Source: an uncultured Gammaproteobacteria bacterium (GTDB lineage: Bacteria; Patescibacteriota; Patescibacteriia; Magasanikbacterales; UBA922). Taken from it: DNA of 64,000 nucleotides. The stretch covers positions 738,709-802,708 of the forward strand of contig OZ246405.1 in assembly GCA_965231005.1 (NCBI GenBank), read 5' to 3'. The position numbers and the translations under genes were made by a program. The notes beneath the pieces were generated by a model that was given only the letters and a program-made list of their open reading frames with translations, did no database searches and had not been told where the DNA came from. The stretch's first letter is position 1. The number at the start of each line of letters is the position of its first letter. This document shows positions 1,654 to 61,530 of this stretch, piece by piece.

Positions 1654-1669
1654 GCTGTCTTGGATTGGT

Positions 1670-1966
1670 CTAATTTAGGCCAGGAATGTTTGGTAGTCCA
1701 CCCATTTCTTTCATTTTCATTGCCATAATACGTTGCATTTTTTTCAATGCATCCTTATGAGCGTCTTTTATTGCATGTTCTAACTTTGTCTTCATATTTA
1801 CTGCTAACAGGTCTTCATCAATGCTGATATCTGTAAGAGTAAGATTGCCATCGAGTGTCAGCGCAACGCCAGATGATTTTACTGTTGTCTGTTCTTTTGA
1901 AAGTGCATCCTGCATGGTTTTTGCTTGTGATCGGATGTCTTTGAATTGTTTGAGTTTGTTGAACAT
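1670..1966 (-). CDS. ybaB: nucleoid-associated protein YbaB/EbfC
   Basis: A 98-aa protein running MFNKLKQFKDIRSQAKTMQDAL ... GGLPNIPGL, which is characteristic of the YbaB family. It lies immediately upstream of recR, as is typical. Confidence 0.85.
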   Translation of the reverse strand: MFNKLKQFKDIRSQAKTMQDALSKEQTTVKSSGVALTLDGNLTLTDISIDEDLLAVNMKTKLEHAIKDAHKDALKKMQRIMAMKMKEMGGLPNIPGLN

Positions 1967-2057
1967 ATAAAAAGGCTTAAAAGGCTTTAAACGCCATAAA
2001 GGCCTAAAAGGCTTTTGTATTTAGCCTTTTGAGCCTTTATAGCTTTTTTAGCTTTTT

Positions 2058-3497
2058 TTAGAATGATGGAATACTTGTTGTTGGTTGTGGTGGTGATGAA
2101 GAAGGTGGTGGTGCATATCCATGGTGCTCAGTATCAAGGTCTTGGAAACTTGCCATTGTTTCTTCAAAAAATACCTTTACTTGTCCTGTTGGACCATTTC
2201 TATGTTTTGCAATATGTATTTCTGCAATATTACGTTCATCTGGAGGTATTTCTTCTAGTCGATAATTTCTGTCTGCAGCTTTTCTATACAAAAACATAAC
2301 AACGTCAGCATCTTGTTCAATACTACCAGATTCACGCAAATGTGCAAGTTTTGGTATAGCAGGCTTGCTTTGTTCCACCGCACGAGAGAGCTGTGAAAGT
2401 GCAAGAACAGGAACATCGAGCTCTCTGGCAATTCCTTTTAAATTTCTACTCATAACAGCAACTTCTTGTACACGATTGTTTGACCATTTTGAGTTGTGTG
2501 ATTCCATAAGTTGCATATAGTCAATCACAATCAGTCCTAGACCATGTTCTGCTTGGAGTCGTCGGGCTTTGCTTCGGATTTGCATAACAGTATTTCCAGG
2601 TGTGTCATCAATGAAAATTTTTGCTTCAGAAAGAACACCCATGGCTTTTCCAATTCTTGGAAAATCTTCACTTCCTGGTCTGTCAGAAAGATTCCCAGTA
2701 CGGAGTTTCCAAAGATCAACACCAGCTTCTGCACACAAAAGACGATCAACAAGTTGTTCCTTGCTCATTTCCAGTGAGAAAAATCCAACAGATGTTTTTC
2801 CATGTAAGGCTGCTTCACGAACAAAATCTAACGCAAGAGATGTCTTTCCAACAGATGGTCTGGCAGCAAGAATAATAAGATCAGACTTTTGTAATCCAGA
2901 AAGAAGGTTATCAAGTTTTTTAAATCCTGTTGGCACACCGCGCATTTTTCCTTTGTCTCTGTGGAGTTCATCAATACGTTCAAATGCACCACTAAGTACG
3001 GTTGTAATAGGTGTGAAACTTTGTCGGAGGTGTTTTTGTGTTACAGAATACAGCTGTTGCTGCGCTTCATCCAAAATTTTATCAACATCATCTTTTTCTT
3101 CATCATATCCAAGTGCAGTAATATCGTGTGCTGCTTGAAGTAATTTTCTTAGTGTTGATTTTTTTTCAATGATTTTTGCGTACTGTCCTATGTGTGAGGT
3201 CGTTGGGACAGCATTGCTTAGTTTGATAAGATAGCTTCTTCCTCCAACATCATCTATTTGATTTTTTTCTTCAAGTCTATTTCCAACTGTCAGCACATCA
3301 ATAGGCTCATTTTTATTGTGAAGTTCAAGTATTGTTTCAAAAATGGTAGAGTGAGCTTTTTTATAAAAATCCTCAGGAGAAATTGCATCTGAAATTTTAA
3401 ACATTGCTTCTTTATCAAGCAAAATAGAACCAATAAAAGACATCTCAGCTTCGAGGTTTTGTGGAGGTATTTTTCCTGTGTCTAATGTGGAGGTCAT
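2058..3497 (-). CDS. dnaB: replicative DNA helicase DnaB, with an unusual C-terminal Pro/Ser-rich tail
   Basis: The DnaB N-terminal motif PPQNLEAEMSFIGSILLD is present. The Walker A (AARPSVGKTSLAL) and RecA-like C-terminal domain are present. The ORF-track start at 3542 was trimmed to the in-frame ATG at 3497 (MTSTLDTGKIPPQN). The protein ends with ...HHGYAPPPSSSPPQPTTSIPSF. Confidence 0.9.
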   Translation of the reverse strand: MTSTLDTGKIPPQNLEAEMSFIGSILLDKEAMFKISDAISPEDFYKKAHSTIFETILELHNKNEPIDVLTVGNRLEEKNQIDDVGGRSYLIKLSNAVPTTSHIGQYAKIIEKKSTLRKLLQAAHDITALGYDEEKDDVDKILDEAQQQLYSVTQKHLRQSFTPITTVLSGAFERIDELHRDKGKMRGVPTGFKKLDNLLSGLQKSDLIILAARPSVGKTSLALDFVREAALHGKTSVGFFSLEMSKEQLVDRLLCAEAGVDLWKLRTGNLSDRPGSEDFPRIGKAMGVLSEAKIFIDDTPGNTVMQIRSKARRLQAEHGLGLIVIDYMQLMESHNSKWSNNRVQEVAVMSRNLKGIARELDVPVLALSQLSRAVEQSKPAIPKLAHLRESGSIEQDADVVMFLYRKAADRNYRLEEIPPDERNIAEIHIAKHRNGPTGQVKVFFEETMASFQDLDTEHHGYAPPPSSSPPQPTTSIPSF

Positions 3498-3647: not shown

Positions 3648-4835
3648 ATGAAAATATGTATCATAAATAATCTCTACCCTCCGAACGCGCGAGGTGGTGC
3701 AGAGCAGGTAGTAAGTAAGACCGTCGAAGGTCTTGTTCATGCTGGACATGATGTTGTTGTCATTACAACCACGCCAGATGGCGATTGGTCAGAGGCAAAT
3801 GATCAGGTTACTATTTACAGATTTAAACCAAGAAATATCTATTATTATATACATGCGCATAAGCATAATATTTTGTTTAGATTTATGTGGCATGTTGTAA
3901 ATATGTTTCATGTTGGGGCTGCCCGGCATGTAAAAAAGATTTTGCAAATAGAAAAGCCTGATGTTGTTCATACGCATAATCTTATGGGACTCAGTTTTCT
4001 TATTCCAAGAATTATAAAACAACTTGGTTTGCGACATTTGCATACGGTACATGATGTCCAATTAGTTGAACCAAGTGGTGTTATTTTAAAGTCAGAAGAA
4101 ACAAGTTGGCGGTACAATGGGTTTCCAACAAAAATATATAGTTGGATTACACGAACATTGTTTGGTTCTCCAGATGTTGTTATTTCTCCTTCGCAATTTT
4201 TGTTAGACTTCTATTCATCAAGAAATTTTTTCAAGAATTCTCCATACGTTGTTGTTCGCAATCCAATTCCATTTGATTTTTCTTCTGAACGTCATAACCT
4301 AGAAAAAGGAGAAAAGTTTCGATTGTTATATGTTGGACAAATCGAACATCACAAAGGCATTGTGTTTCTTGCAGAAGTATTTTCATCGTTAACAAATATT
4401 GATGCCGAGCTGCACATTGTTGGAAATGGGTCATTGTTTGATGATGTGAAAAAGATTGCAAATGACAATGAAAAAATTCATGCGCATGGACGTTTGAACA
4501 GACAAGAAGTTGCCTCATTGTTTCAACAGTCTGACATGACAATTGTTCCTTCGCGATGTTATGAAAATTCTCCAACTGTTATTTTTGAAAGTTTTTATTT
4601 TGGTGTTCCTGTCCTTGCGAGCAGAATCGAAGGTATTGCTGAGTTGATCCGAGAAGGGGAGAATGGTGTAACATTTGTTGCAGATGATAAAGAATCATTA
4701 AAAGAAAAAATACTATGGTGCACACAGTCAAAAACACATCTTGAAAATATGGCAAAAAAAACACGCGATTCTTTACGCGGGTTGTCAGAAGGGGAGTATG
4801 TTGAGCGATTGTTGTCGCATTATAAAAATAATTAA
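3648..4835 (+). CDS. GT4-family glycosyltransferase (GT-B fold)
   Basis: The N-terminus MKICIINNLYPPNARGGAEQVV and the ~400-aa GT4/GT1 architecture. The start was trimmed from 3585 to the ATG at 3648. Confidence 0.8.
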   Translation: MKICIINNLYPPNARGGAEQVVSKTVEGLVHAGHDVVVITTTPDGDWSEANDQVTIYRFKPRNIYYYIHAHKHNILFRFMWHVVNMFHVGAARHVKKILQIEKPDVVHTHNLMGLSFLIPRIIKQLGLRHLHTVHDVQLVEPSGVILKSEETSWRYNGFPTKIYSWITRTLFGSPDVVISPSQFLLDFYSSRNFFKNSPYVVVRNPIPFDFSSERHNLEKGEKFRLLYVGQIEHHKGIVFLAEVFSSLTNIDAELHIVGNGSLFDDVKKIANDNEKIHAHGRLNRQEVASLFQQSDMTIVPSRCYENSPTVIFESFYFGVPVLASRIEGIAELIREGENGVTFVADDKESLKEKILWCTQSKTHLENMAKKTRDSLRGLSEGEYVERLLSHYKNN

Positions 4836-6913
4836 ATCGTATACTCAAAAATCCAAATATCACCATCATCAATAACATGCCAACTATCGGCTGTTTTTTT
4901 TGCGCCTTCTATAATCTTGTCTGAGTCTGCCCAATACGAATTAAGAACAAAATAAGCTTTTTCTGCTCCAGTCATACTCATTGCCTTTTCCATATATTCT
5001 CTTTTTTGTCCTTTGTATAGCATATTTCCATATTCTTGATACAATGGACCGCCAGTAGGAATGGAATAATAAAAAAGTTCACCTTGATCTGTTTGAAAGT
5101 GGTGGGCAAAACTGTAGTACTCGAGCGCTGCTGCAGATACTAATTGATTTGCAAGGACAACATAATTGTATTCACTATTTTGATCATGGATCCACTGTAC
5201 AGCGCTTGCATCGGTAGCTGTTACATTTAATCCTGGAAAGCGAGCTTTTTGGTTGTGCTGTGGATAGGCAAGATACAAAGAGAGCATTAGTATGACAGAT
5301 GAGGAAATGACAACAAAGGATTGATATTTTTTGTTTTTTATTTTTTCAAGAACAATATACAGTCCGTACATTGCACATGGGAACAAGAAGAGCAGTGATG
5401 CCTTTATTAGGCGCAATGGATAATCACCTTGTTCATATGCAGCAACGTTTGGAAATACAAACCAACTTCGTAACAGCCAGGCACTTGCTATCATTCCCAA
5501 AAAAGCTGCAACAAGAAGCTGGATTGTCGCATTCTTTCTCTTTTTTATAAAACCAATAAAAGCAAATATCAAAAATACAACCGGAATAAGAGATTGCCAT
5601 GTGTACAAAACTTCAAAATATATTGCTGCTTGTTTTGCATACCAATATGGCTGTGCAAACAGAGAAAGAACATGGTCAATAGAAGTAAATGGATTTTGAA
5701 TGTTGGGAAGTGGCTGACCAGATAACAATAATTGTAGTGTAAAAAGAATTGGAAGAAGAATTGCAATGTCAAATATAAGAGATAGGAGCAAACTTTTTAT
5801 TGCTTTTTTTTCATTATATTTTTGTATTAAAAATGCATAAAACACGAAAAGGACGATTGGTGCCCCTATGAGTGGGTGGATTGATATTGCTGTTATTGAT
5901 AAAAGAATCGGGATATGAAAAGGAATACTTTTCTGTAAATAAAGGATAGTTGAAAAAATTGTTATGAGACTTATGAGAAGGGCAAGATTGTATGGTGTTG
6001 TAAGGTGAAAGAATAAAAATGGTAGAAAAATAACAAAAAGTGCAAGCGGATGTGCGAATTTTTTTGTAATAGCAAATCCATGTTTTAATGTTGCTGGAAT
6101 GATTGCTGGGAGTGTAAGCGATGCAAGGACAGGGACAAGATACACATCAATATAAAATAAAGGAATTGCAGTTACATTTGATAGCCAAACAACAAAACTA
6201 TATTGTCCAATGTAGTATGGTTGTTTTGGGTGGATAAAACCAAAAATTTGAATCCATTGTTCTGTTGCTCGGTGAATAAATGCATCAAATCCAAAGCCAA
6301 GTTTATAGATTATTGCTGCAACACTGTATGTGGCAAAGAAATGTACGGCAATAGATATGAACCGTGTTATAGTATTTTTGCTTTTGCTTACAAACATCAA
6401 TAGCAACCCTGTTGCGAGTGCATACAAAATAAAAAATTGAGGTGACAATGCATGCCATGGTGAACGCAAGAGTCCATCAGTACTTCCCAGAAAGAGCATT
6501 GCTATGAGTGCGATTTCAATTAAGACAAAAAAAACAAACGTTCGTTGTGTTGTTTCTTCTTCTTTTTTCCAAGATATTTGCGGAAGTTCTAGATGAGAAA
6601 TAAATCTAAAACCAGTGATGATAGGAAGCCACAAAACAAACAGGCTTGTTACTGGGGTTATTGCATGTATATAATAGAGAAGTGAGTTCGCAATAATAAG
6701 ATAAAGAAGCGATACAAGCATTGACCAGGCGAACACCTGTGTTTGTGCTTCAATCTTTTTTTGAATAATACTTGCGATTATTGTTGTTAAACCAAAAACA
6801 AAAATAACAAGTCCAGTAATGCCAAGGATAATTCCTTGTGAAAAAAGATTTGCACTCAAAAGAAACGCTCCAACAGCATATATTGAAATAAGTTGTCGTC
6901 TTGCAAGATACAT
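4832..6913 (-). CDS. polytopic membrane protein (>12 predicted TM helices) with a C-terminal soluble domain; putative GT-C-type glycosyltransferase
   Basis: A 693-aa protein with an extremely hydrophobic N-terminal ~520 aa followed by a ~170-aa hydrophilic C-terminal domain. It sits inside a glycan-biosynthesis locus. The family assignment is inference only. Confidence 0.4.
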   Translation of the reverse strand: MYLARRQLISIYAVGAFLLSANLFSQGIILGITGLVIFVFGLTTIIASIIQKKIEAQTQVFAWSMLVSLLYLIIANSLLYYIHAITPVTSLFVLWLPIITGFRFISHLELPQISWKKEEETTQRTFVFFVLIEIALIAMLFLGSTDGLLRSPWHALSPQFFILYALATGLLLMFVSKSKNTITRFISIAVHFFATYSVAAIIYKLGFGFDAFIHRATEQWIQIFGFIHPKQPYYIGQYSFVVWLSNVTAIPLFYIDVYLVPVLASLTLPAIIPATLKHGFAITKKFAHPLALFVIFLPFLFFHLTTPYNLALLISLITIFSTILYLQKSIPFHIPILLSITAISIHPLIGAPIVLFVFYAFLIQKYNEKKAIKSLLLSLIFDIAILLPILFTLQLLLSGQPLPNIQNPFTSIDHVLSLFAQPYWYAKQAAIYFEVLYTWQSLIPVVFLIFAFIGFIKKRKNATIQLLVAAFLGMIASAWLLRSWFVFPNVAAYEQGDYPLRLIKASLLFLFPCAMYGLYIVLEKIKNKKYQSFVVISSSVILMLSLYLAYPQHNQKARFPGLNVTATDASAVQWIHDQNSEYNYVVLANQLVSAAALEYYSFAHHFQTDQGELFYYSIPTGGPLYQEYGNMLYKGQKREYMEKAMSMTGAEKAYFVLNSYWADSDKIIEGAKKTADSWHVIDDGDIWIFEYTI

Positions 6914-10242: not shown

Positions 10243-10683
10243 ATGGTGTACAAAAAAGAAGACGAACGCGTAAGCGTATCAGTTGGTGCAATTGTTTTGA
10301 ACAAAGATGGACACGTTCTTTTATCAAAAAGAGCAAAAGATCCATTTCGAGGTGCGTGGGTATTGCCGAGTGGCTTTCTTCAAACACATGAGAGAACAGA
10401 AGAAGGGGTTGTCAGAGAGGTATATGAAGAAACAGGATTAAAGATAACATTGGATCGTTTATATGGTGTGTATTCTACCCCTGGTCGAGATCCACGGTCA
10501 CACGTAGTATCACCATACTACGTTGCTCATGTTGATAGTGGAAGTATTATTAATACCATAGAAGCAAAGGATTCAGATTTTTTTCCTCTAGACAAATTGC
10601 CAAAAGGAGAGTACGCTTTTGACCATGAACAGATTCTCAAAGATTTTGTGTCATCACCAGAAAAACAACCATTTTCTCCATAA
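10243..10683 (+). CDS. NUDIX hydrolase
   Basis: The motif GAWVLPSGFLQTHERTEEGVVREVYEETGLKI is a Nudix box. Confidence 0.8.
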   Translation: MVYKKEDERVSVSVGAIVLNKDGHVLLSKRAKDPFRGAWVLPSGFLQTHERTEEGVVREVYEETGLKITLDRLYGVYSTPGRDPRSHVVSPYYVAHVDSGSIINTIEAKDSDFFPLDKLPKGEYAFDHEQILKDFVSSPEKQPFSP

Positions 10684-10694
10684 TCCTATGGCAT

Positions 10695-11096
10695 ATGGAA
10701 ACTGCAAAACAAACACTTTTTATTCAACAGTTTCCTTTTGAACGCGATATTAGAGAAGATGCAAGAGCATTAGAAACCGCCAAAGTGGGGGATGTCCATA
10801 TTTCTCGGATAGAAATAAAACCGCAAGCAATCATTGGCAATCTTTATTACAACACAACAGATGTTATTTTTTTTCTGGAGAGTGGAAGTCTACGAATGAA
10901 ATTTTTTCAAATTCATACACACGAAGAAAAAGAAGTCATATATAATCCAGGGGACGGCATTATTCATTTGCCAGCGCAAGTTGCATTTGCATTTTCAAAT
11001 ATATATGATGTATCTGCAGTATTAATTATGTTTTCAAATAAGTCTCTTCAGTCTGACGATGATACATCGTTTCCACTGTATACAACAGGAATTTAA
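10695..11096 (+). CDS. small cupin-like protein, possibly a WxcM/FdtA-like sugar ketoisomerase
   Basis: A 133-aa beta-rich protein whose ...FPFERD... segment is reminiscent of WxcM-like domains. It lies directly upstream of rfbB. The assignment is weak. Confidence 0.3.
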
Positions 11097-11107
11097 CTAA
11101 TGTATTT

Positions 11108-12112
11108 ATGAAGTTACTAGTAACGGGTGGTGCAGGATTTATAGGATCAAATTTTATTCGATATTATTTACAGAATCACGCAGATGATTCTATTATTAAT
11201 GTTGACATACTTACCTATGCTGGAAATTTGGAAAATCTAAAGGATATAAAAGATGATCCAAGATATTCTTTTGTAAAAGCAGATATTTGTGACAAAGAAA
11301 CAATAGAAGACCTTGTCAAAGATGTTGACATAATTGTTCATTTTGCAGCAGAGAGTCATGTTGACCGATCAATTATGGATCCAGGTGCATTTATACGAAC
11401 AAATGTATTAGGGACACAAGTATTATTAGATGCTGTAAAAAAGTACAAAAAAAGGTTTCACCATGTTTCAACGGACGAAGTGTTTGGTGCATTAGGACCA
11501 CATGATCCACCATTTGACGAACAAACACCGTATGATCCAAAAAGTCCTTATTCAGCTTCCAAAGCAGCTTCAGATCATCTTGTTCGTGCGTATCATCATA
11601 CGTATGGATTAGAAATAACAATTTCTAATTGTTCGAACAACTATGGTCCATATCATTTTCCAGAAAAAATAATTCCGCTTTTCATTTCAAATCTTATGGA
11701 AGGAAAATCAGTTCCTGTGTATGGAGACGGTGGACAGATTCGTGACTGGATTTATGTTGATGATCATAGCCGTGGTATTGATATGATTTTGCAAAAAGGA
11801 AAAAGTGGTGAAACATATTGTCTTGGTGGGGGAAACCAACCTACAAATCTTGAGTTAACAAAGAAACTTATTCATCTTCTTGATCGTGATGAATCGTTCA
11901 TTGAATTTGTAAAAGATCGTCCTGGACATGATCGTCGGTACGATGTAGACTACAGCAAGGCAAAACATGAGCTTGGATGGGAGCCACAAGTTTCTCTTGA
12001 CGAAGGATTGAAAAAGACAGTTGATTGGTACAAAGAACATCAAGAATGGGTTGCTCGCTGCAAGAGTGGTGAATATATGAAATACTACGATGAGTGGTAT
12101 GGCCGTACGTAA
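11108..12112 (+). CDS. rfbB: dTDP-glucose 4,6-dehydratase
   Basis: The N-terminus [16 protein letters not shown], the catalytic YxxxK (YSASKAASD) and [11 protein letters not shown] match RmlB. Confidence 0.9.
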
Positions 12113-12116
12113 TACT

Positions 12117-12986
12117 ATGAAGATACTTATTATTGGAAATGGATATGTTGGAAAACGCTGTGCAGATGCATGGGACAATAGTATCCTTTCCACAAAAAAA
12201 ATTTATACAAAACAGGATGCCCTGGATATTATTGAAGAACATGGGCCAGATGTTGTCTTAAATGCTGCTGGAGTGCGTGGTTATCCAAATGTTGACTGGT
12301 GTGAAGACAATCAACTGCCGACAATGATTGGAAATACAAAATTGCCAATTCTTATTGCAGAAGCATGCCAAGAAAAAGGAATATATCTGCTTCACATTGG
12401 GTCTGGTTGTATTTTTTATGGTGATTCTCCTCATCCAGACAAAAAATGGAGAGAACATGATTTTGGAAATCCTGATGTTGTATATTCTCGCGCAAAATGG
12501 GCAGCTGACTTAGTTCTTTCTACACTTGATAATGTTGGTATTGCTCGGATTCGCATGCCGATTGACTGGATTCCTGCACAACATAATCTCATTGATAAAT
12601 TAGCAACATATCCAAAAGTTATTGATGTTGAAAATAGTGTAACAATTATTGATGACATGATTGATGTATTTTATAAACTTATGGAGAAAAATGCTTCTGG
12701 AATTTTTCATGTGACCAATCCTGGAACAATGAAGCATAAAGAACTTATGGCATTATATGAAGAATTAGTTGATCCAAATCATACAAATGAATGGATTTCA
12801 AATGATGATTTAGTCAAACAGGGGCTCGCAACAAAAGGACGCTCAAATAATTTTTTACATTCAGAAAATTTAGCAACATTTGGAATTGAAATGAGGAATG
12901 TACAAGATGCCTTGAGAGATACTATGGAAAAATACGCAAAAGCAAAAAAAGCAGGAAAATCGTCAGAAGATATTCTTTCTTGCTAG
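12117..12986 (+). CDS. NAD(P)-dependent sugar reductase/epimerase, RmlD (dTDP-4-dehydrorhamnose reductase)-like
   Basis: An MKILIIGNGYVGK Rossmann N-terminus at ~290 aa. It is adjacent to rfbB. The start was trimmed to the ATG at 12117. Confidence 0.6.
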   Translation: MKILIIGNGYVGKRCADAWDNSILSTKKIYTKQDALDIIEEHGPDVVLNAAGVRGYPNVDWCEDNQLPTMIGNTKLPILIAEACQEKGIYLLHIGSGCIFYGDSPHPDKKWREHDFGNPDVVYSRAKWAADLVLSTLDNVGIARIRMPIDWIPAQHNLIDKLATYPKVIDVENSVTIIDDMIDVFYKLMEKNASGIFHVTNPGTMKHKELMALYEELVDPNHTNEWISNDDLVKQGLATKGRSNNFLHSENLATFGIEMRNVQDALRDTMEKYAKAKKAGKSSEDILSC

Positions 12987-34385: not shown

Positions 34386-35777
34386 CTACAGGATGTGACT
34401 CAGGATGCTGACGTACGCCATTCCCATGAGCATAAGCACGATGCCGATGCCAAACGCGTGGCGCATCCAGTCGAAGAACGAGATTTTGGTCCCGTGCTTT
34501 CCCATGATCACGACAATGACGATGTTCGAAGCTGTTCCGATGATGGTGTGAACACCACCGGTCAGGCTTGCCCATGCCACTGAGATCTGCTGGAGCAGGT
34601 CGTTCTGTGTGATAGCTTCTTTGCCGAGTTCGAAAACAGCAAGTGCATTGTCTGCAAAAGCGCTAAATCCGTGTGTCGTGGCATACTCAGAAATTGCTCT
34701 GAATGCTCGCTGTGGAGGGAGCATGGTGCCAAAGGCCTGAATGGCCATATAGCACATACCACCCATGAACATAAGCGCAATGAGGAATCCACTGACAAGT
34801 CCACTCTCAATAGCTTCGCCAAACACATGCGTGACTGGATTTTTCTGTCCAGGCTGAGTTTTGCGAACTTCAGGGCGCAGTGCATGAAGAAAGTTGATGG
34901 GGAAGCAGACAGCAAAGACGACGATCATTCCAAGAATGGACTTTTCACCACCAAGCATGTCTGCGAAGACACCAAAGTAGAGAACTCCAGCCCAAAGCAC
35001 CAGATTGACCCAGTCAATGGCCCAAAAGGGTTTTGTCTCAATCTTTGGCGAGTTTTCGCAGTTGTCAGCAGTCTTGTATGCCCACCAGCCAGTAACCAGA
35101 AGACTTGCCAGGACGATCGGTCCGAGGTATCTGAGTGTATCCCAGGTTGTCCAGCCAAACATGCCTGCAGCAATCACAATGCTTGGTGCAGCAAAGTTGG
35201 TCAGACCACCGCCAACCCCGATTCCAACACCATGCAGGACGCCGAGTTTCTTCTTGGTTTCTTCGGTCTGGTTTGCGTTGACTTGTGCAAAGCCGCCTGT
35301 TGATGCGGCAGCAGCAGCTACCTCAGAAATGACTGATGCCAGTCCACCAACGAGGATCATGACCATGGCACTAAACTTTCGTTCATCTCCCCCTGCGAGA
35401 TGCTGGAGGAATGCAACCATGTGATTCACGAAACGCTTGAGCTGCAAAGAGGTGAACATGAGCGTTCCAACCAATATTGCAGCGTGCATGTCGATGTGAT
35501 GGCTTACGCTGTTAATGACTTCTTGAGCTCCGCCGCTTCGGGTGAACGAGACCCACATGAACACGGCACCGATGATGATGAGGACTTCTGTCTTTGTCGC
35601 GACCTCGATGAGGGACATTGCTTTGCCGTTGAGAAAGCCGAGCACATATCCGTTGTTTTTGCCGTTTCCATTGCCTCCGAGTTGGATCAAGCGTCTTGCG
35701 AGACTTTGTCCGACAGCTGCGAGCAACAGAAAAAAGGCCAAAATGCCCAGGTTCTGCCAATCGAGTGGTGACATCAT
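34386..35777 (-). CDS. ArsB/NhaD/CitMHS-superfamily ion permease (putative Na+/H+ antiporter or anion transporter); GC-rich, probably horizontally acquired
   Basis: A ~460-aa polytopic protein with two repeated halves and glycine-rich hairpin-like segments (GVGIGVGGGLTNFAAPSIV). The track start at 35849 is TTG and was trimmed to the ATG at 35777 (MMSPLDWQ). Coding GC is ~52%, against a ~36% background. Confidence 0.6.
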   Translation of the reverse strand: MMSPLDWQNLGILAFFLLLAAVGQSLARRLIQLGGNGNGKNNGYVLGFLNGKAMSLIEVATKTEVLIIIGAVFMWVSFTRSGGAQEVINSVSHHIDMHAAILVGTLMFTSLQLKRFVNHMVAFLQHLAGGDERKFSAMVMILVGGLASVISEVAAAAASTGGFAQVNANQTEETKKKLGVLHGVGIGVGGGLTNFAAPSIVIAAGMFGWTTWDTLRYLGPIVLASLLVTGWWAYKTADNCENSPKIETKPFWAIDWVNLVLWAGVLYFGVFADMLGGEKSILGMIVVFAVCFPINFLHALRPEVRKTQPGQKNPVTHVFGEAIESGLVSGFLIALMFMGGMCYMAIQAFGTMLPPQRAFRAISEYATTHGFSAFADNALAVFELGKEAITQNDLLQQISVAWASLTGGVHTIIGTASNIVIVVIMGKHGTKISFFDWMRHAFGIGIVLMLMGMAYVSILSHIL

Positions 35778-36090
35778 GCCTACCTCCTCTGTTTGGGGTT
35801 TTGCGTTTATCCTATAGAGGAAATCTATAGAGATCAGTGAAAATACCAAACGTTGATAGACTCACTGACCTCTATAGGTTTATCCTTGCCTTGTAATGAA
35901 CAGGTATTCCAAGACAATATGTCCTTGAATACACCTACCGTACAAGAAAGGTACGGCAATGCAAAATGGTAGCATATTTTTTTCTTTCCGTCAATACTGT
36001 TTTTATTTTTTTGGCTTAATATTGACAAATTAGCAATTTATCCGTATAATCTACACTACTTGAACTATTTATTCCTCTAGACATATCCAC

Positions 36091-40434: not shown

Positions 40435-41019
40435 CTAGTCGCCTTTCCATCCTTCTACATTTGCAGCGATCAGTGCAAAGGATATGCCGAATGCTCCTGC
40501 CCCGAGCTTTTCAAGTTGTTCGAACATAGGATGTGATCTGATCATCATGTATAGGACCAGCAAGATCATCAGTGCACTGGGTGCCATGAAAAGACCGTCG
40601 TAGCCATCTTCATGCACTCCTTTGCTTTCTGCATCACCAACGCCCTCGTAGTAGACGATCGGATCTTTGAACGAGTCATCCACATCTGTTCTCACAACGA
40701 TCAAAGACATCATTTCTTCCAGTGGAAAGTAGTTGTGCTCAAGCAACCGGGTCAATGCTTCGGTGAGAGCCTCTCGTCCGCTGTCAGACAGTCCTTGAAT
40801 GTACTCTCGAAGTTCTTTGCGTAGCGTAGCGTCTGGCTTCAGGTTCACCACACCACCGAGTGGTCCATATTCAGACACTCGAATGTGTCGATTCCTAATG
40901 CCAGTCAACGCATGCTCACCAAATGCCTTCATTCCTGAGATTGCGAAGAGCGGCGCCAAAGCCATCTTTCCGAGATTCATATTGCCCCCTTGTGGAAGTG
41001 TTTGTTCGGAGTCTAGCAT
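40435..41019 (-). CDS. hypothetical protein (194 aa) with C-terminal hydrophobic segments; GC-rich (~48-50%)
   Basis: A clean ORF whose codon usage is distinct from its neighbours. No motif is recognised. Confidence 0.4.
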   Translation of the reverse strand: MLDSEQTLPQGGNMNLGKMALAPLFAISGMKAFGEHALTGIRNRHIRVSEYGPLGGVVNLKPDATLRKELREYIQGLSDSGREALTEALTRLLEHNYFPLEEMMSLIVVRTDVDDSFKDPIVYYEGVGDAESKGVHEDGYDGLFMAPSALMILLVLYMMIRSHPMFEQLEKLGAGAFGISFALIAANVEGWKGD

Positions 41020-54566: not shown

Positions 54567-55919
54567 ATGCAACAATCAACATTGCACAGGCAGGATAGAT
54601 TAGCTCGTCAAATATGGTTTTGGCTTGTCTCTATTGTGCTTTTCTTTTCTATTCCATTTGCTGCAAATGCAGCTTCAACCTTTGGGAATAATGTATCAGT
54701 AGGTGGGACTCTTACCCAGACAGGAGCAGCAACATTTGACGGAGTAATTCAACCAGCGTCAAACAATGGTGAAGACATTGGAGCATATGGTGCAGCATGG
54801 AGTGAAGTGTTTGCATCAGGAACAGTTCACATTGGTGAAGTAACAAGCGCAAATGAATCTACAACAGCAGGAGATGTAAACATTGGTGGACAGCTTGTCG
54901 TAGACGATGAAATTTTTGCAAGTAGTACGATTACAGTACAAACATCTATTCTTCCATATTCACACGATGGAGCTGACATTGGTACAAATGGTACAGCAGC
55001 ATGGAATGATCTATACACATCAGGGACAGCATTTATTGGTGATGTGAATAGTTCCAACCAGGCTACAACAGCAGGAGACGTAAACATCGGAGGACAACTT
55101 GTGGTAGATGATGAGATTTACGCAAGTAGTACGATTACAGTACAAACATCTATCCTTCCATACTCAAATAGTCAGGCAAATATTGGTGCATGGGACACTG
55201 CTTGGAATAATATTTTTGCCTCAGGCTCATCATATCTTGCTGGTGCGACTTTTAATAAGAATGGGACAATAACATTTGGGACATCAACTGCAGGTGCAAC
55301 TATTGGAGAGGTAGTCTTTAATTCTCCTTTAGCGTCAGATATTCCTATTGATACAGGAAATACAAGGTCAATTGGTAGTTACTTTGGTGCGCTTAAAGAC
55401 ATGTATGCATCAGGAACAATTTTTTCAAACTCAGTGAGTAGTACAGTTCTAGATGTAAGTGGGGTAGTAACTATCGGTACAATAGATAGCTCTAACGAAG
55501 CTTCAGCAGCAGGAGACGTCAACGTTGGTGGACAGCTTGTTGTCGATGATCAGCTCTATGCAAGTTCTACTCTGGCCGTGCAAGGTGCTATTTATGCAAG
55601 TTCAACAATTGTTGTTGATGGAGGTGTAACGGTTAATGCATCAAATGGTTCTGATGCTGATTTTCAAGTAAATAACAGTTTTGGAACAGCAATTTTGTTT
55701 ACTGATGTGTCAGAGGGTAATACAGGTATTGGTACGTCAACTCCAGAGGCTGGAATTGATGTGTTCAGTATTGCAACATCATCAGCTCGAATTGATTCTA
55801 AACATGAATCAAGAGGTGGTTGTCTCATTATCAAGGATCGTGATGGTGATGGATATTCTTATGGAACAGTTAATGATGGGGCTATTACTTGGTCAACAGC
55901 AGATTGCACACAAGGATAA
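54567..55919 (+). CDS. secreted repeat protein (paralog 2), same family as 53287..54525
   Basis: Signal peptide, then the identical ASTFGNNVSVGGT mature N-terminus, three or more TTAGDVNIGGQLVVDDEI[FY]ASSTITVQTSILPYS repeats, and two Cys near the C-terminus. Confidence 0.6.
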   Translation: MQQSTLHRQDRLARQIWFWLVSIVLFFSIPFAANAASTFGNNVSVGGTLTQTGAATFDGVIQPASNNGEDIGAYGAAWSEVFASGTVHIGEVTSANESTTAGDVNIGGQLVVDDEIFASSTITVQTSILPYSHDGADIGTNGTAAWNDLYTSGTAFIGDVNSSNQATTAGDVNIGGQLVVDDEIYASSTITVQTSILPYSNSQANIGAWDTAWNNIFASGSSYLAGATFNKNGTITFGTSTAGATIGEVVFNSPLASDIPIDTGNTRSIGSYFGALKDMYASGTIFSNSVSSTVLDVSGVVTIGTIDSSNEASAAGDVNVGGQLVVDDQLYASSTLAVQGAIYASSTIVVDGGVTVNASNGSDADFQVNNSFGTAILFTDVSEGNTGIGTSTPEAGIDVFSIATSSARIDSKHESRGGCLIIKDRDGDGYSYGTVNDGAITWSTADCTQG

Positions 55920-57972: not shown

Positions 57973-58389
57973 TTATATGTTAGATAATGATTTGAGATAG
58001 TCATCAATAACGATTTTAACATTTGGTGCGCAGTCTTCAGGAAGGTTGTGAATGTCAAACCAACCCCATTCTACAACATCATCACCAATTGAAATTTCTC
58101 CGGTTCTTTTTGCTAGAAAATGAATAAGAATGGTATATCTGGTATCATCCTCAACCCGTTTCATCATGAGTGGTCGGAGTGGGCGTAATATTTCAACATC
58201 AATATTTAATTCTTCCTTTGCTTCTCGTATACAAACGTCTTCAAATGTTCCATTAAAATCTTCCATTTTTCCACCAGGAAAGAACCATGGGGTTATACCA
58301 AAATCTTTTTCTTCTTTATCAAGTAAAACCTTACCATCTTCAATGATTACAGGTCCACAGGCAATAATTGTATTTGGGGGAAGAGTCAT
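57973..58389 (-). CDS. NUDIX hydrolase
   Basis: Nudix box GGKMEDFNGTFEDVCIREAKEELNI. Confidence 0.8.
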   Translation of the reverse strand: MTLPPNTIIACGPVIIEDGKVLLDKEEKDFGITPWFFPGGKMEDFNGTFEDVCIREAKEELNIDVEILRPLRPLMMKRVEDDTRYTILIHFLAKRTGEISIGDDVVEWGWFDIHNLPEDCAPNVKIVIDDYLKSLSNI

Positions 58390-58539
58390 ATGTTATAAAA
58401 TTATGATACTAGGATAGCATACCGGGAGGTCGTCATCAAGACGTGGAATCAAACAAAAAACAGGCCTAGTAGACTTGTTTTTTTGGTTGATATTTGTGTT
58501 TATCTCAGAGTATATCTCTTTTTGCAAAAGAAATATGCT

Positions 58540-58578
58540 CCGAGCCCCGACCGAACGTTGTTCAGTCAGGGCCCTCGG
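58540..58578 (-). terminator. conserved 3' hairpin of cassette A (paralog at 59233..59269)
   Basis: CCGAGCCCCGAC...GTCAGGGCCCTCGG imperfect long stem immediately after the stop codon. Confidence 0.45.
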
Positions 58579-58594
58579 TTGAAGATTGAATTCG

Positions 58595-59029
58595 CTACTT
58601 CGCGTCGGGCATGTCGAAGTCGTCGTGTCCGGCGTGGACGTCCTTCATGTGGTAGATCTTGACGATGCATTTGCCACCGCAGTCGAAGGTGTCGCCATTG
58701 CCGACGTAGGAAACGCTGTGTCCGTCCGGGTTGGAGTTGCCCACCTGGAAACCGTGGGCCAGCCCCTTGGTCGTGGTCTTGACGGTGACCTTCGGGCAGC
58801 TGCTGTACGCGGCGACGAACGACGTTCGGCCCTGCGCCTTCTTCTCCAGCTTCTGCACGTTGTACGTACAGTCGCTCTGGAGGAAGACGGCATGGATGTC
58901 GTCGATGTCCATGTAGACGACGCTGGTGGTGGCCTTGCTGGTCTTGTTGTCGGGCTTGTCCTCGTCCGGAAGGATGGCGATGAGGATGGCTGCGAAGATC
59001 ACGAAAATGCCGATAGTTCTGCTATCCAT
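58595..59029 (-). CDS. cassette A: small secreted Cys-containing protein (144 aa, signal peptide, 4 Cys); GC-rich
   Basis: The minus-strand ORF has a signal peptide (MDSRTIGIFVIFAAILIAIL), a Shine-Dalgarno GAGGTG upstream and balanced composition. The overlapping plus-strand ORF is V/G/D/A-rich junk. Confidence 0.6.
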   Translation of the reverse strand: MDSRTIGIFVIFAAILIAILPDEDKPDNKTSKATTSVVYMDIDDIHAVFLQSDCTYNVQKLEKKAQGRTSFVAAYSSCPKVTVKTTTKGLAHGFQVGNSNPDGHSVSYVGNGDTFDCGGKCIVKIYHMKDVHAGHDDFDMPDAK

Positions 59030-59064
59030 GTAGCACCTCGAAAGAACAGACCTTTGCGGCCTGG

Positions 59065-59147
59065 GTAGTTGAATTCAAAAGGAACCGAGGTCAGCGCATG
59101 GCGCCAAGTCCCGGTAGAGGGATCCAGCGCACGATTGCTAACTGAGT
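59065..59147 (-). promoter_or_regulatory. conserved ~85-nt upstream leader module of cassette A (paralogous copy at 59971..60053)
   Basis: The two copies have 2 mismatches over ~85 nt, and each lies 35-45 nt upstream of its ATG. The module contains the GCGC-atg-GCGC hairpin and GAATTC / GGATCC palindromes. Confidence 0.55.
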
Positions 59148-59232
59148 GCAAGACACAGTATGTCTTTTGCTCAACTAACAATTAGCTGTATTTTCTCACG
59201 GTATACTTCCTTTCTTTGAAGGAAACATGCCA

Positions 59233-59269
59233 CGAGCCCCGACTGAACGTTGTCCAGTCGGGGCCTCGG
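59233..59269 (-). terminator. conserved 3' hairpin of cassette B
   Basis: CGAGCCCCGACTG-aacgttgtc-CAGTCGGGGCCTCG, a 13-14-bp stem. Confidence 0.45.
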
Positions 59270-59285
59270 TTAAAGGTTGAATTGA

Positions 59286-59924
59286 CTACCAGCGGCCGTC
59301 GATCTGATACACGCACTCGTCAGTCTCGCACGTGAGGTTCGTCGTGAGCTGAGTAGGTCGGATGCTGATCTCCTTGCCGTTGTGGAGCAGGCGGACGTCG
59401 CCAGGAACACGATCTTTGTCTAGGTTCTTGAACGTGACGCTGTCACAGTTCGGGAACGAAAGAGGTCGGTTGCCCCAGTAACTCCAGACGCTTGCGGAAA
59501 ACTCGCAGACCTTCGAAACGCGGACGGGGTAAGGGCTGTTCCACAGTGCTTCGTCAGAGCTCTTGATGCTGTGAACGACGCAATAGCCGAGGCACGTGTA
59601 CCGGCCTTTCCCGGTTTGGTCCACGTACTTGGCATCCTGTTCCGGAACCTCGGGATGGTAGAGGCTGATCGTGAAGTTCAAGCGAACATCCTGCGCATCC
59701 AGCGTCAGGCTGTCGCATCCCGGGAATCGGGCCGAACGCTCAGCGCCGTAGCGGTGTTGGAATTTGACGATGTCCAGCGTGCACTTGTGGACCTCTGGGT
59801 GGTACGTGAGGACCGGTTCGATCGGCTTCGAGTAATCGAACTTGATCGGTTCCGGCGCCGAATCGTCGCACGCAACGAGGTTGAGGACAAAGATGGACGC
59901 AAGGGACAAAAGGAAAATACGCAT
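59286..59924 (-). CDS. cassette B: secreted lipoprotein-like Cys-rich protein (212 aa, lipobox LVAC, 9 Cys, internally duplicated ~70-aa module)
   Basis: ORF with signal peptide MRIFLLSLASIFVLNLVAC; an SD GGAG upstream; it precedes the same conserved leader as cassette A. Confidence 0.6.
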   Translation of the reverse strand: MRIFLLSLASIFVLNLVACDDSAPEPIKFDYSKPIEPVLTYHPEVHKCTLDIVKFQHRYGAERSARFPGCDSLTLDAQDVRLNFTISLYHPEVPEQDAKYVDQTGKGRYTCLGYCVVHSIKSSDEALWNSPYPVRVSKVCEFSASVWSYWGNRPLSFPNCDSVTFKNLDKDRVPGDVRLLHNGKEISIRPTQLTTNLTCETDECVYQIDGRW

Positions 59925-59970
59925 GATAGCGCTCCAGATTGGGGCGGCCGTTCAAAGGGTGGGGCCGGCT

Positions 59971-60053
59971 GTAGTTGAATTCAAAAGGAACCGAGGTCAG
60001 CGCATGGCGCCAAGTCCCGGTAGGGGGATCCAGCGCACGTTTGCTAACTGAGT
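59971..60053 (-). promoter_or_regulatory. conserved upstream leader module of cassette B (copy of 59065..59147)
   Basis: Near-identical to leader A. Confidence 0.55.
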
Positions 60054-60129
60054 TCAGAAGAAATTCTTCTCTGCTCAATCAACAATTTTTTTGACTCGTT
60101 AAAGCTTTTTCAATTAATGTTTTAAAAAA

Positions 60130-60216
60130 CAATTAACAATTAACAACTAACAAACTTTCTTTCACTATTCTTTGATTCAAAGAGTTGTTATTTGTTTCTT
60201 GTTAATTGTTATTTGT
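60130..60216. repeat. MITE-like element, copy 2 (short form) inside the GC-rich cassette island
   Basis: CAATTAACAATTAACAACTAACAAAC ... TTCAAAGAGTTGTTATTTGTTTCTTGTTAATTGTTATTTGTT shares its termini and the internal TTCAAAGAG core with copy 1. Confidence 0.45.
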
Positions 60217-60266
60217 TCAGCAGTTTCTTTCTCTTCAGTATAGCACTGAAAAGAAGAAAACTGCAC

Positions 60267-60297
60267 GCCCGACGGTTTTGGATATTATCCGTCGGGC
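60267..60297 (-). terminator. conserved 3' hairpin of cassette C (GCCCGACGG-loop-CCGTCGGGC)
   Basis: A 9-bp GC stem with the same stem sequence as in cassette D but an unrelated loop; preceded by the shared (ACT)GCACG motif. Confidence 0.45.
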
Positions 60298-60321
60298 AGC
60301 AGGTTCGGTGTAGGGTGCCGA

Positions 60322-60441
60322 TCAGGCGAACGCGCCGCTGTTGATGAGCGGGCAGATGAGCGTTGCGGCCAACGTGCACGCTGCCAGGAACGTGATGAAG
60401 TTGGAGGAAACGTACTCGGTGGGGAAACAGCTCGGGATCAT
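60322..60441 (-). CDS. cassette C: 39-aa hydrophobic single-TM peptide (MIPSCFPTEYVSSNFITFLAACTLAATLICPLINSGAFA); not in the ORF track
   Basis: Hand translation. Its start context CATGGAAAGCTCC is identical to that of the cassette D gene, and it sits between a conserved 3' hairpin and a conserved ~250-nt leader. Coordinates are approximate to within 3 nt. Confidence 0.4.
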   Translation of the reverse strand: MIPSCFPTEYVSSNFITFLAACTLAATLICPLINSGAFA

Positions 60442-60690
60442 GGAAAGCTCCAATGTGCCGACCCAACATGGGCGGGCGAGGGAAAATGGTCTCGTGGACC
60501 AGGTTGTGGTCGCACGAGTCGACCGGGGAACAAGAGTCTCTAAGAAGAACCTTGTATCCCGGTCGAACTAACCTTGAAGCTGAACCTACACTGTAATGAA
60601 CCTGCGAGTGGATGAATCTGTATCTCAGAAGTTGAGTTATTGATTACTTATCTCACTCGTACATAGATGGCATTTATTCTATATACCAGT
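60442..60690 (-). promoter_or_regulatory. conserved ~250-nt 5' leader of cassette C (paralogous to 61000..61250), with a long imperfect hairpin
   Basis: About 85-90% identical to leader D by eye. It contains TCGACCGGGGAACAAG...CTTGTATCCCGGTCGA stem arms and TATATA at its distal end. Confidence 0.5.
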
Positions 60691-60753
60691 AGATAAGTTT
60701 TGTTTTGAACAGTTCTTCTCTCCTCAATTAAGAAGAGAAGAGAAGGACTGCAC

Positions 60754-60785
60754 GCCCGACGGAAATATGGAAGTTCCCGTCGGGC
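60754..60785 (-). terminator. conserved 3' hairpin of cassette D (GCCCGACGG-loop-CCGTCGGGC)
   Basis: As for cassette C. Confidence 0.45.
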
Positions 60786-60810
60786 AGCAGGTTCGGTCGT
60801 GTAGGAGTTG

Positions 60811-60999
60811 TTACTTGCTGGCGAGCTGGATCGGCGCATCGCTCGTGTCCACGTGGATGTGGACCGTACCGAGATCGATGCCGCGCTCGAGCTTGCTGCG
60901 CGAGCTGTTGATGGACAGCTGGCAAGCGCTCAGGACGCAGACGATGATCGCGGTCACGATGATGCCGAAAACGGTGCTCTTGAAGTTGACAGTACGCAT
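60811..60999 (-). CDS. cassette D: 62-aa small lipoprotein-like or TM peptide (MRTVNFKSTVFGIIVTAIIVCVLSAC...)
   Basis: ORF in the track; N-terminal hydrophobic helix with an LSAC lipobox-like motif; conserved leader upstream and conserved hairpin downstream. Confidence 0.5.
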   Translation of the reverse strand: MRTVNFKSTVFGIIVTAIIVCVLSACQLSINSSRSKLERGIDLGTVHIHVDTSDAPIQLASK

Positions 61000-61250
61000 G
61001 GAAAGCTCCAGAAGTGCCGACCCAACGTGGGCGGGCGAAAAGGCGGTCTCGTGGACCAGGTTGTGGTCGCACGAGTCGACCGGGGAACAAGAGTCTCTGT
61101 TAAGATCCTTGTACCCTGGTCGAAAAACCTTTGGAGTTTCTGTACCTACACTGTAATGAACCTGTGAGGAGATGAATCTGTATCTCAGTAATGAGATGTG
61201 GACTACTTATCTCACTCATACATAGATGGCATTGATTTCTATATATAAGG
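61000..61250 (-). promoter_or_regulatory. conserved ~250-nt 5' leader of cassette D
   Basis: Same organisation as leader C. Its stem arms TCGACCGGGGAACAAG...CTTGTACCCTGGTCGA carry compensatory differences relative to copy C. Confidence 0.5.
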
Positions 61251-61530
61251 GGACAAGCTTTTGAAGAGGAATAACTGTGGGTTTTTGTGTCTATATATGT
61301 TATAGATTTTTAAACTCTTTGTTATTTTTGAACAGCATAGTATAACACAAAAAAAGGATCTTGTCAAGCCCCTTGCGAAATAATTTGGCTTAAATAAGGT
61401 AATAAATAAAAAAATGGCTTTGTTAAGCCAAGTGAAATTTTACTAAATAAAGGTATAAGATTGCCGCGGTCCCTTTCGACTTAGGCAGGCTCAGGGTCCC
61501 TCGCAATGACAGTAAAGTCAAATTTGTTTT

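Follow-up and report, generated by a model that had tools for sequence, protein, structure and literature searches.

Putative exported-protein genes of foreign composition with complementary 5′ and 3′ flanks downstream of elp3 in a candidate phyla radiation bacterium

Introduction

Integron cassettes mostly lack promoters and conserved 5′ leaders; in their attC sites the R″ and R′ boxes pair at the base of one long imperfect hairpin of 57–141 nucleotides (nt), and IntI, attI and Pc adjoin the array except in clusters of attC sites lacking integrases (CALINs). In hok/sok-type type I toxin mRNAs the 5′ end pairs with a 3′ fold-back element, and in Staphylococcus aureus icaR the 3′ untranslated region (UTR) pairs with the Shine–Dalgarno (SD) region itself. 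The Borrelia erp/ospE-F-elp ‘upstream homology box’ genes and the Mycoplasma vlp/vsp genes form tandem lipoprotein paralogue families with conserved upstream regions, in which the signal peptide is conserved too and phase variation proceeds via promoter tracts or site-specific inversion. Here we analyze an array of four small-protein genes, termed A to D, in a 64,000-nt window (the whole stretch of DNA that was analyzed; positions 738,709 to 802,708 of contig OZ246405.1, assembly GCA_965231005.1) from a low-GC (~37% G+C) Magasanikbacteria-like genome of the candidate phyla radiation (CPR). The array forms an islet of ~2.8 kb between elp3 and a Nudix gene, and every one of its four small-protein open reading frames (ORFs) is on the minus strand. 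We tentatively read it as an islet of autonomous exported-protein genes of foreign composition, in which RNA-constrained UTR scaffolds would form a 5′–3′ panhandle and which sits in a lineage hotspot downstream of elp3, a reading that we favor while stopping short of calling it probable.

The array shares features with each of these systems. Like integrons and CALINs, it consists of co-oriented small ORFs of diverse sequence with a conserved imperfect palindrome behind each of them, and its composition is unlike that of the host. Like hok/sok-type mRNAs, its units have a long structured leader and a predicted closing helix around the start codon and ORF; they also occur in tandem, and two of the products (C and D) are small and hydrophobic. 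With the Borrelia erp and Mycoplasma vlp families it has in common clustered, co-oriented genes for small putative surface lipoproteins, 5′ non-coding DNA far more conserved than the mature protein, and signs of recombination between flanks; by contrast, the signal peptides of the array differ and only the UTR is conserved, its units include a 3′ module and 5′–3′ complementarity, and its composition is alien. As in icaR, part of the 3′ UTR could pair with the 5′ UTR on its own mRNA, a possible route to translation control or RNase III cleavage, but in the array the SD would lie inside the loop and not in the helix, and the helix belongs to a scaffold that is duplicated and reusable. Phage ‘morons’ and small genomic islets are likewise single genes with their own (here predicted) promoter and terminator and deviant composition between conserved neighbors, whereas the array has no prophage context, forms paralogous scaffold families and uses one chromosomal slot across genera.

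Results

The G+C content (GC), calculated in 300-nt windows, was 0.45–0.60 between positions 58,350 and 61,200, compared with a flanking level of ~0.35 and a mean of 0.367 (standard deviation 0.047) in the remaining window. The block at 58.5–61.3 kb has 55–60% GC. Since long ORFs arise by chance on several frames in GC-rich DNA, coding frames were judged by codon periodicity. All four minus-strand ORFs showed a strong signal, with GC at the first, second and third codon positions (GC1/GC2/GC3) of about 0.5/0.4/0.76–0.89. ORF A (58595–59029) encodes 144 amino acids (aa) with values of 0.51/0.37/0.89, ORF B (59286–59924) 212 aa with 0.55/0.41/0.76, ORF C (60322–60441) 39 aa with a GC3 of 0.86–0.90, and ORF D (60811–60999) 62 aa with 0.49/0.41/0.87. 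GC3 was 0.14–0.34 in the other window ORFs of at least 90 aa (n = 58), except for two intermediates (0.50 and 0.57). Chance-type plus-strand ORFs of 160, 135 and 129 aa overlap the array and display the mirror periodicity, with a high GC1. An SD sequence (GAGG or TGGAG) is located 5–8 nt ahead of the ATG of every ORF; for C, the length given assumes the ATG aligned with that of D, and a TTG start would give 43 aa. Because GC3 periodicity and an SD/ATG pair are found for each of them, the minus-strand frames A to D are real genes with a codon usage alien to the host. Such codon usage indicates coding DNA without the mutational history of this genome, either foreign or belonging to a separate gene pool.

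In the public annotations (ENA, Logan and the NCBI 1.23-Mb contig), antisense ORFs on the plus strand had been called instead (58586–59068, 59571–59978 and 60767–61156). Antisense calls of 129, 135 and 147 aa are present in public records, where they are singletons among ~15 billion proteins. As a consequence, the true proteins are absent from protein databases: the A and D sequences were not found in the ~15-billion-protein collection, and B is not on record.

Export signals were judged from sequence rules. The lipoprotein criterion (a basic N-region, a hydrophobic core and the lipobox [LVI][ASTVI][GAS]C) picked out B (MRIFLLSLASIFVLNLVAC, lipobox LVAC) and D (MRTVNFKSTVFGIIVTAIIVCVLSAC, beginning MRTVNFK, lipobox LSAC), suggesting that both are lipoproteins, while A, with an uncleaved-type N-terminal anchor, is probably membrane-anchored. 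Behind its anchor A carries one four-Cys domain. Behind its signal B carries two ~75-aa copies of a four-Cys domain, the product of an internal duplication (E = 1e-4), and D ends in a 36-aa polar tail. C is hydrophobic and has a lipobox-like LAAC without a basic N-region. A aligned with the first domain of B so that all four Cys match up (E = 0.03), with 24% amino-acid identity across one domain, and the three domain copies share the pattern C..C..T..L.H..C..C. Direct comparison of the C and D proteins gave no significant similarity, and homology between them is not supported. An AlphaFold model of B, built without an alignment, was all-beta with a pLDDT of 49 and was unusable. When the coding sequences were compared with synonymous shuffles, the z-score for structure was about 0 for A and B, and selection for mRNA structure in these two was rejected; for D it was −2.9.

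The four genes fall into two flank families. A and B share an 86-nt leader block with 97% identity and a 56-nt 3′ block with 80% identity, and the leaders of C and D have about 265 nt in common (84–88% identity), with 3′ blocks that are 82–100% identical. The C/D leaders are mosaic: their 5′ part is AT-rich and host-like, and is itself within the C/D duplication. Hairpins directly follow the stop codon in all four cassettes. Each of the four 3′ modules consists of a GC hairpin, a U- or CU-rich tract and a second hairpin with one pyrimidine-rich and one purine-rich side, and the tract doubles as the 5′ arm of this pyrimidine/purine hairpin. Compared with shuffled sequences, folding z-scores were −6.05 for the C leader, −6.7 for the D leader and −3.5 to −7.1 for the 3′ modules (−7.1 for D and −5.8 for C).

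The differences between paralogous flanks preserved the predicted pairing throughout. The C/D leader alignment has 76 predicted pairs, with 1 compensatory change and 7 single changes that keep the pair; the corresponding figures are 25, 3 and 2 for the C/D 3′ modules and 29, 3 and 6 for the A/B 3′ modules, and no pair was broken in any of them. Pooled over the three alignments, 7 compensatory and 15 single pair-keeping changes affect 130 predicted pairs, with 0 broken. Many of the single changes create G–U pairs, which are functional only on the minus-strand transcript, and such wobble-compatible, strand-specific changes point to RNA.

The conserved and variable parts of A and B meet at sharp edges. 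The leaders are 97% identical up to the last base of the element described below as the 5′ arm; the next 35–46 non-coding nt and the ORFs cannot be aligned at the nucleotide level, and similarity returns at G-UAG. Simple divergence after duplication does not give such edges. The flanks may have been homogenized or strongly constrained while the interior diverged, or the interiors may have been exchanged by recombination between the flanks; both alternatives fit the two copies per flank family.

These results bear out most of what the initial annotation of this stretch had described from composition and layout, namely a GC-rich block in a low-GC genome, four minus-strand ORFs of 144, 212, 39 and 62 aa, and two families, A/B and C/D, in which a leader and a 3′ hairpin enclose a variable small exported-type protein. 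Its description of the flanks as near-identical holds for the A/B leader, the other flanks being 74–88% identical, and its view of the coding sequences as unrelated stands for C and D and is too strong for A and B, which weakly share the four-Cys domain.

In the minimum free energy (MFE) fold of each full-length unit, the leader and the 3′ UTR form a closing helix (4/4). The arms of A (59065–59090 with 58573–58598, minus strand) read CCUCGGUU..UUGAAUUC..CUAC on the 5′ side and GUAG.GAAUUCAA..AACCGAGG on the 3′ side, and make a duplex of 20 bp in three collinear helices (8+8+4 bp) that includes the UAG stop codon and lies at the inner edges of the conserved blocks. The corresponding arms, all on the minus strand, are 59968–59996 with 59264–59293 in B, where the 3′ arm runs over the stop codon, 60585–60605 with 60299–60314 in C, and 61145–61164 with 60788–60805 in D. 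Loose pairing statistics were replaced by a stricter helix-chain test: the 30 nt that immediately follow each ORF were compared with the leader, uninterrupted helices of 6 bp or more in collinear order were scored, and the score was set against 2000 shuffles. The observed score was reached by none of the 2000 shuffles for A, B and C and by 1 of 2000 for D. In A and B, the arms coincide exactly with the 26 nt of the conserved blocks that adjoin the variable segment, and their score was reached by none of 5000 shuffles; of five differences between the two 3′ arms, four are located in internal loops.

Homologues of Elp3 carry source-assigned names of Magasanikbacteria or Patescibacteria, the nearest being only 73% identical. 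The gene order methyltransferase, Elp3, gap, Nudix, SHMT, TsaE is kept in relatives, whereas the content of the gap differs. In the relative L020 (71% Elp3 identity, same project, ~47% GC overall), the elp3–Nudix gap is a block of 61–70% GC with two ORFs on the Elp3 strand, whose GC3, measured from the ATGs, is 0.88–0.89. Cassette 1 encodes a 199-aa Cys-rich protein that satisfies the lipoprotein rule (MRTMTILIAVAILALTAC) and matches the Pfam Dicty_CTDC Cys repeat (8e-13), and cassette 2 encodes a 189-aa transmembrane (TM) protein with a Cys-rich tail. Both are unrelated in sequence to A to D, whereas layout and slot are identical. The two L020 cassettes have a common 3′ module, including a hairpin with an A–U to G–C compensatory change, and the only leader element that they share is the arm motif AAUCCAACA, which pairs with UGUUGGA of the 3′ module. 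In the strict test, 21 of 2000 shuffles reached the observed score for cassette 1 and 0 of 2000 for cassette 2. Three unrelated sequence families thus share one architecture, consisting of a leader, a 5′ arm, an SD and ORF, a 3′ arm, a GC hairpin and a second hairpin. The gene calls of L020 are also antisense (10522–11154 on the minus strand, 11521–12171 on the minus strand and 1317–2381 on the plus strand).

Other relatives have further deviant genes downstream of elp3. In L021 (9781–10501), L026 (8760–9555), L028 (8689–9036) and L031 (6990–7710), small ORFs for zinc-ribbon-like proteins with paired CxxC motifs and a GC3 of ~0.65 directly follow elp3; these post-elp3 ORFs are partly conserved at the DNA level among L021, L026, L027 and L031. 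The relative with the closest Elp3, L030, has a gene for a 262-aa signal/TM protein with a GC of 0.48 within a contig of 0.31. As L020, L021, L026, L028, L030 and L031 show, genes of deviant composition that encode small proteins with Cys residues or of exported type are found time and again in the slot downstream of elp3.

The locus matches no known family. Rfam covariance models gave nothing at the gathering score in the window and its relatives, with only spurious microRNA and small nucleolar RNA matches at E ≤ 10, and Pfam, NCBIfam, PHROGs and PADLOC gave nothing above noise for the four proteins. A word-indexed search of 5.8 billion clusters with the 212-aa B protein found no homologue, and a profile of the three four-Cys domain copies searched against 1.84 billion representatives returned only repeat-protein noise (BspA-like leucine-rich repeats and Ig-like repeats). 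There was no match in plasmids and phages (blastn and tblastn) or in the PDB (phmmer). A six-frame query with the chimeric leader found no match either and is uninformative, since it also missed the antisense ORF P0125, which is in the collection and has an exact 51-aa stretch in common with the query. Exact-word scans with both leaders and the 3′ modules gave nothing in IMG/VR and only two chance matches of 20–21 nt, in Leucobacter, among GTDB representatives; in JGI metagenomes the A/B modules gave none and the C/D modules 13 chance 19-mers in contigs of 62–70% GC. No further copies of the flank modules are present in the 64-kb window, and nothing usable on similar CPR islands was found in the literature. 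Given that strand miscalls would hide CPR homologues, the protein-database negatives speak mainly against a sampled high-GC donor.

Promoter-like sites precede D, B and A. The array is headed by a strong promoter-like site of σ70 type (61339–61367, minus strand), which lies in AT-rich DNA of host-like composition and has TTGACA, a 17-nt spacer and an extended −10 element, TG-n-TATACT (11/12 consensus matches). The features that follow from head to tail are also on the minus strand. The D leader (61000–61332) is homologous to the C leader over its final ~265 nt; it is AT-rich in its 5′ third and GC-rich with several hairpins in its 3′ part, and has the SD TGGAG 7 nt before the ATG. The D 3′ module (60705–60810) contains the 3′ arm, a GC hairpin at ~60748–60790 and the pyrimidine/purine hairpin at ~60715–60745. 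The C leader (60442–60702) is a paralogue of the D leader, and the C 3′ module (60215–60321) comprises the 3′ arm, a GC hairpin, a U-rich tract and the pyrimidine/purine hairpin. The boundary between C/D and A/B is an AT-rich spacer (60124–60217, no strand assigned; GC 0.37) with an inverted repeat of 30-nt arms (87–89% complementary; I2 and I3) followed by a T-run. The promoter-like site for B (60085–60113) has TTGAAA, a 17-nt spacer and AAAAAT, and A/B conservation begins at about the predicted transcription start of B. The B leader (59925–60078) has a long imperfect hairpin, the 5′ arm and 46 nt of unique sequence with the SD TGGAG; the B 3′ module (59195–59293) has the 3′ arm, a GC hairpin at ~59237–59263 and the pyrimidine/purine hairpin. 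A weak promoter-like site for A (59190–59220; TTCAAA, a 19-nt spacer and TG-n-GAAAAT) falls within the second hairpin of B. The A leader (59030–59183) contains hairpins, the 5′ arm and 35 nt of unique sequence with the SD GAGGTG, and the A 3′ module (58505–58598) the 3′ arm, a GC hairpin at ~58544–58572 and the pyrimidine/purine hairpin.

Contigs from ENA (MEGAHIT) and Logan for runs ERR2281800 and ERR2281801 carry the Nudix and Elp3 proteins of the window and are 100% identical to it over both junctions, the interior AT-rich spacer and the array; products of the window genes are also on record for a 1,232,850-bp NCBI contig. Independent assemblies break within ORFs B and A (59712–59723, 58695 and 58762) and not at the repeats, which may reflect strain-level polymorphism or low coverage there. 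Just beyond both ends of the array there is a 13/15 direct repeat (ATATGTTATA..; 58388–58402 and 61295–61309); it could be an integration scar, but AT-rich sequence is expected to contain repeats of such length by chance. A GC-rich patch of ~50 nt (CATTGCGAGGGACCC...GGGACCGCGGCAATC; 61455–61505, minus strand), which lies between the stop codon of elp3 and the elp3 terminator (61415–61430), could form a hairpin.

Elsewhere in the window, a 487-aa membrane protein encoded at 34386–35849 (minus strand), without cassette flanks, has a GC of 0.51 and a GC3 of 0.57 (genome GC3 ~0.24) and weak Na_H_antiport_3 and CitMHS matches. At 40435–41019 (minus strand) lies a gene for a 194-aa orphan with a hydrophobic C-terminal part (GC 0.49, GC3 0.50) and no Pfam match. 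A 450-aa ORF (54567–55919) with an unusually high GC2 contains a direct repeat of ~104 nt (54859–54962 and 55063–55166; 89% identity, 204 nt apart), indicating an internally repetitive protein. Among the relatives, L020 has a classical island at 155–2560, with a tyrosine integrase (155–964), a tRNA (1052–1122, minus strand) and a 327-aa orphan gene (1341–2324, minus strand). The orphan gene has 67% GC, a GC3 of 0.95, its own promoter-like site and a GC-rich 3′ UTR of ~170 nt, and its start context, GGAGGAAACC, is as in cassette 1. In L028, a 1.8-kb region of 51–60% GC (4550–6330) between the PALP and methyltransferase genes has almost no called genes. It can be read as successive units of a TTGACA/TATAAT-like promoter, a GC-rich segment of 100–250 nt with 5′–3′ closing stems and a terminator, and it also holds a 114-aa ORF with a GC3 of 0.70; there was no Rfam match, and the units are candidate novel small RNAs.

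Discussion

In the interpretation that we favor, the array would be four autonomous minus-strand transcription units, arranged as two tandem paralogue pairs, D–C and B–A. Each unit would run from a promoter-like site through a structured 5′ leader, an SD and ATG and the ORF of a small exported protein into a 3′ UTR. This UTR begins with ~25–30 nt of complementarity to the leader and continues with a GC-rich hairpin of terminator type and the pyrimidine/purine hairpin. The mRNA may close as a panhandle around the SD and ORF. The UTR scaffold would then be the part constrained at the RNA level, gating mRNA stability, processing or translation, while the interior of the panhandle would diverge fast or be swapped when the conserved flanks recombine. 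For the proteins, a cell-surface or secreted role in contact with a host or neighbors is most likely, and the gap downstream of elp3 would serve as a lineage-wide landing slot for such genes. The 5′–3′ complementarity, found in every cassette and new here, had been missed by the initial annotation, as had the weak homology between the A and B proteins and the slot itself.

Several points weigh against this interpretation. Long-range 5′–3′ pairs are common in the MFE fold of any long RNA, and looser statistics of 5′–3′ pairing (RNAduplex energies, gapped local alignment and a loose helix-chain score) were not discriminating in GC-rich sequence. The 5′ arm of C and D is located in mid-leader, where it competes with a local hairpin in the leader-only fold. 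RNAalifold favors structures that fit both sequences of a pair, and with two copies per flank family covariation statistics are thin; as no module copies outside the array were found in the scanned collections, constraint across lineages is without comparison. Transcription of the units and formation and role of the panhandle are predictions from sequence; the lipoprotein nature of B and D and the membrane anchoring of A are likewise predictions, from sequence rules only. C is possibly degenerate or decaying and may be non-functional. Finally, the z-scores of about 0 for the A and B coding sequences mean that the high GC is not explained by selected structure in the long ORFs.

The main rival is plain transfer and duplication, by which an ordinary horizontal islet of two genes, complete with UTRs and terminators, was acquired from a high-GC donor and each gene was tandemly duplicated, the flank similarity reflecting recent duplication plus gene conversion and the complementarity having no function of its own. 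We consider this unlikely on balance, while taking it seriously: the codon usage is typical of a bacterium of ~63–65% GC, the window has further GC-elevated genes (34386–35849 and 40435–41019), the elp3–Nudix gap varies among relatives, and the L020 gene with a GC3 of 0.95 adjoins a tRNA and a tyrosine integrase, a classical island indicating that these genomes take up high-GC DNA. However, no donor homologue was found in the cluster, profile, plasmid, phage and PDB searches, the leaders are mosaic with an AT-rich, host-like 5′ part within the C/D duplication, and the complementarity recurs in three unrelated sequence families. Plain duplication also leaves unexplained why 97% flank identity lies beside unalignable non-coding and coding sequence. 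An assembly chimera joining a high-GC organism to a CPR contig was named in the initial annotation as a way in which the array could prove ordinary. The abrupt jump in composition would suit it, as would the Logan and MEGAHIT contigs that break inside the array, but two runs, two assemblers and the NCBI 1.23-Mb contig agree completely over both junctions and the entire array, and host-like AT-rich segments (the promoter at 61339–61367, the initial ~110 nt of the C/D leaders and the 60124–60217 spacer) alternate with GC-rich parts, a pattern that a chimeric join would not yield. We regard a chimera as very improbable.

The hairpins and arms invite comparison with three other kinds of element. 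It is improbable that C and D, and perhaps all four units, are type I toxin–antitoxin-like, with a membrane peptide made from a folded mRNA that is kept inert by 5′–3′ pairing as in hok-type systems and neutralized by an antisense RNA. C and D are within the usual size of such toxins (below ~60 aa or close to it) and hydrophobic, their leaders of ~260–330 nt are highly structured, the closing helix is present, tandem duplication is common for such loci, and synonymous shuffles of the D coding sequence are less structured than the original. Yet a consensus scan of the plus strand found no convincing promoter for an antitoxin RNA, nothing scoring better than 4+4 of 12 and the sole candidate being weak and inside a hairpin; no toxin or antitoxin family matched significantly in Rfam, Pfam, NCBIfam and PADLOC; in place of a pore-forming helix, D has a lipobox-bearing signal of canonical lipoprotein type; and A and B share the RNA architecture while encoding secreted-type Cys-domain proteins of 144 and 212 aa, far over the usual toxin size. 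The complementary arms might instead be DNA inverted repeats for a recombinase, making the SD and ORF either an invertible ON/OFF switch of a surface protein or a passenger cassette mobilized in trans in the manner of a miniature inverted-repeat transposable element (MITE) or mobile insertion cassette. Imperfect inverted repeats of ~20–26 bp bracket exactly the variable segment in A and B, the A/B arms contain the 10-bp palindrome TTGAATTCAA, and the sharp conserved/variable boundary suggests recombination at the arms; even so, we find this idea quite improbable. Asymmetric loops interrupt the arms, the array has one orientation in 7 of 7 public contigs, the contig breakpoints are not at the arms, and the neighboring hairpins change in the wobble-compatible, strand-specific way that points to RNA. 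In insertion sequences (IS), MITEs and mobile insertion cassettes terminal inverted repeats mark the outer ends and are flanked by target-site duplications, whereas here the arms are at the inner edge and the conserved sequence extends outward from them; no further copies were found in the window or the scanned collections. No Phage_integrase match was present among the called genes within ~10 kb (precomputed Pfam), and a tblastn search with one Xer-like recombinase had no match in the window; the earlier statement that the window has no integrase stands within the scope of these two checks. That the array is integron-like without an integrase, its 3′ hairpins serving as attC sites, is highly improbable despite the resemblances described above. 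The attC boxes (RYYYAAC/GTTRRRY) occur 3–5 times per strand in 3.1 kb, as expected by chance, and the one R″/R′ pair that the four junctions have at a usable spacing of 50–150 nt (59169–59282) spans two separate local hairpins; each 3′ module is two such hairpins where an attC site would form a single long stem with its R and L boxes paired, the ORFs bring along promoter-like sites as well as conserved 5′ leaders of 86–265 nt, and no IntI was found nearby among the called genes within ~10 kb. The earlier judgment that the array fits neither integrons nor type I toxin–antitoxin loci cleanly is upheld, while the secreted-effector or peptide-toxin role proposed with it stays an inference.

A bolder version of the panhandle interpretation, which we regard as doubtful, is that the array represents an undescribed CPR gene cassette: a reusable ‘panhandle mRNA’ scaffold, composed of a structured leader, the 5′–3′ closing helix and two 3′ hairpins, into which diverse GC-rich exported-protein ORFs would be swapped without an integron-type integrase, always in a fixed slot. 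The scaffold would be both a post-transcriptional switch and a homology platform for exchange, and the alien codon usage might reflect a pool shared among episymbionts or tuning to something other than the cell’s own translation bias.

CPR bacteria are thought to live attached to other microbes, and to our knowledge almost nothing is known about the surface and secreted proteins that mediate this attachment. As a compositionally distinct set of small, putatively exported Cys-stabilized proteins that appear to diverge fast or to be exchanged in a conserved slot, the products of the locus are plausible interaction factors. Since gene callers trained on the low-GC host picked the antisense strand in every case seen, such genes are systematically missing from protein databases. 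If plain gene transfer is the true explanation, the locus remains a record of how reduced genomes have taken up high-GC DNA more than once at one hotspot; if the panhandle interpretation holds, the conserved UTR scaffold with its 5′–3′ complementarity could be a new form of post-transcriptional control or a platform for cassette exchange.

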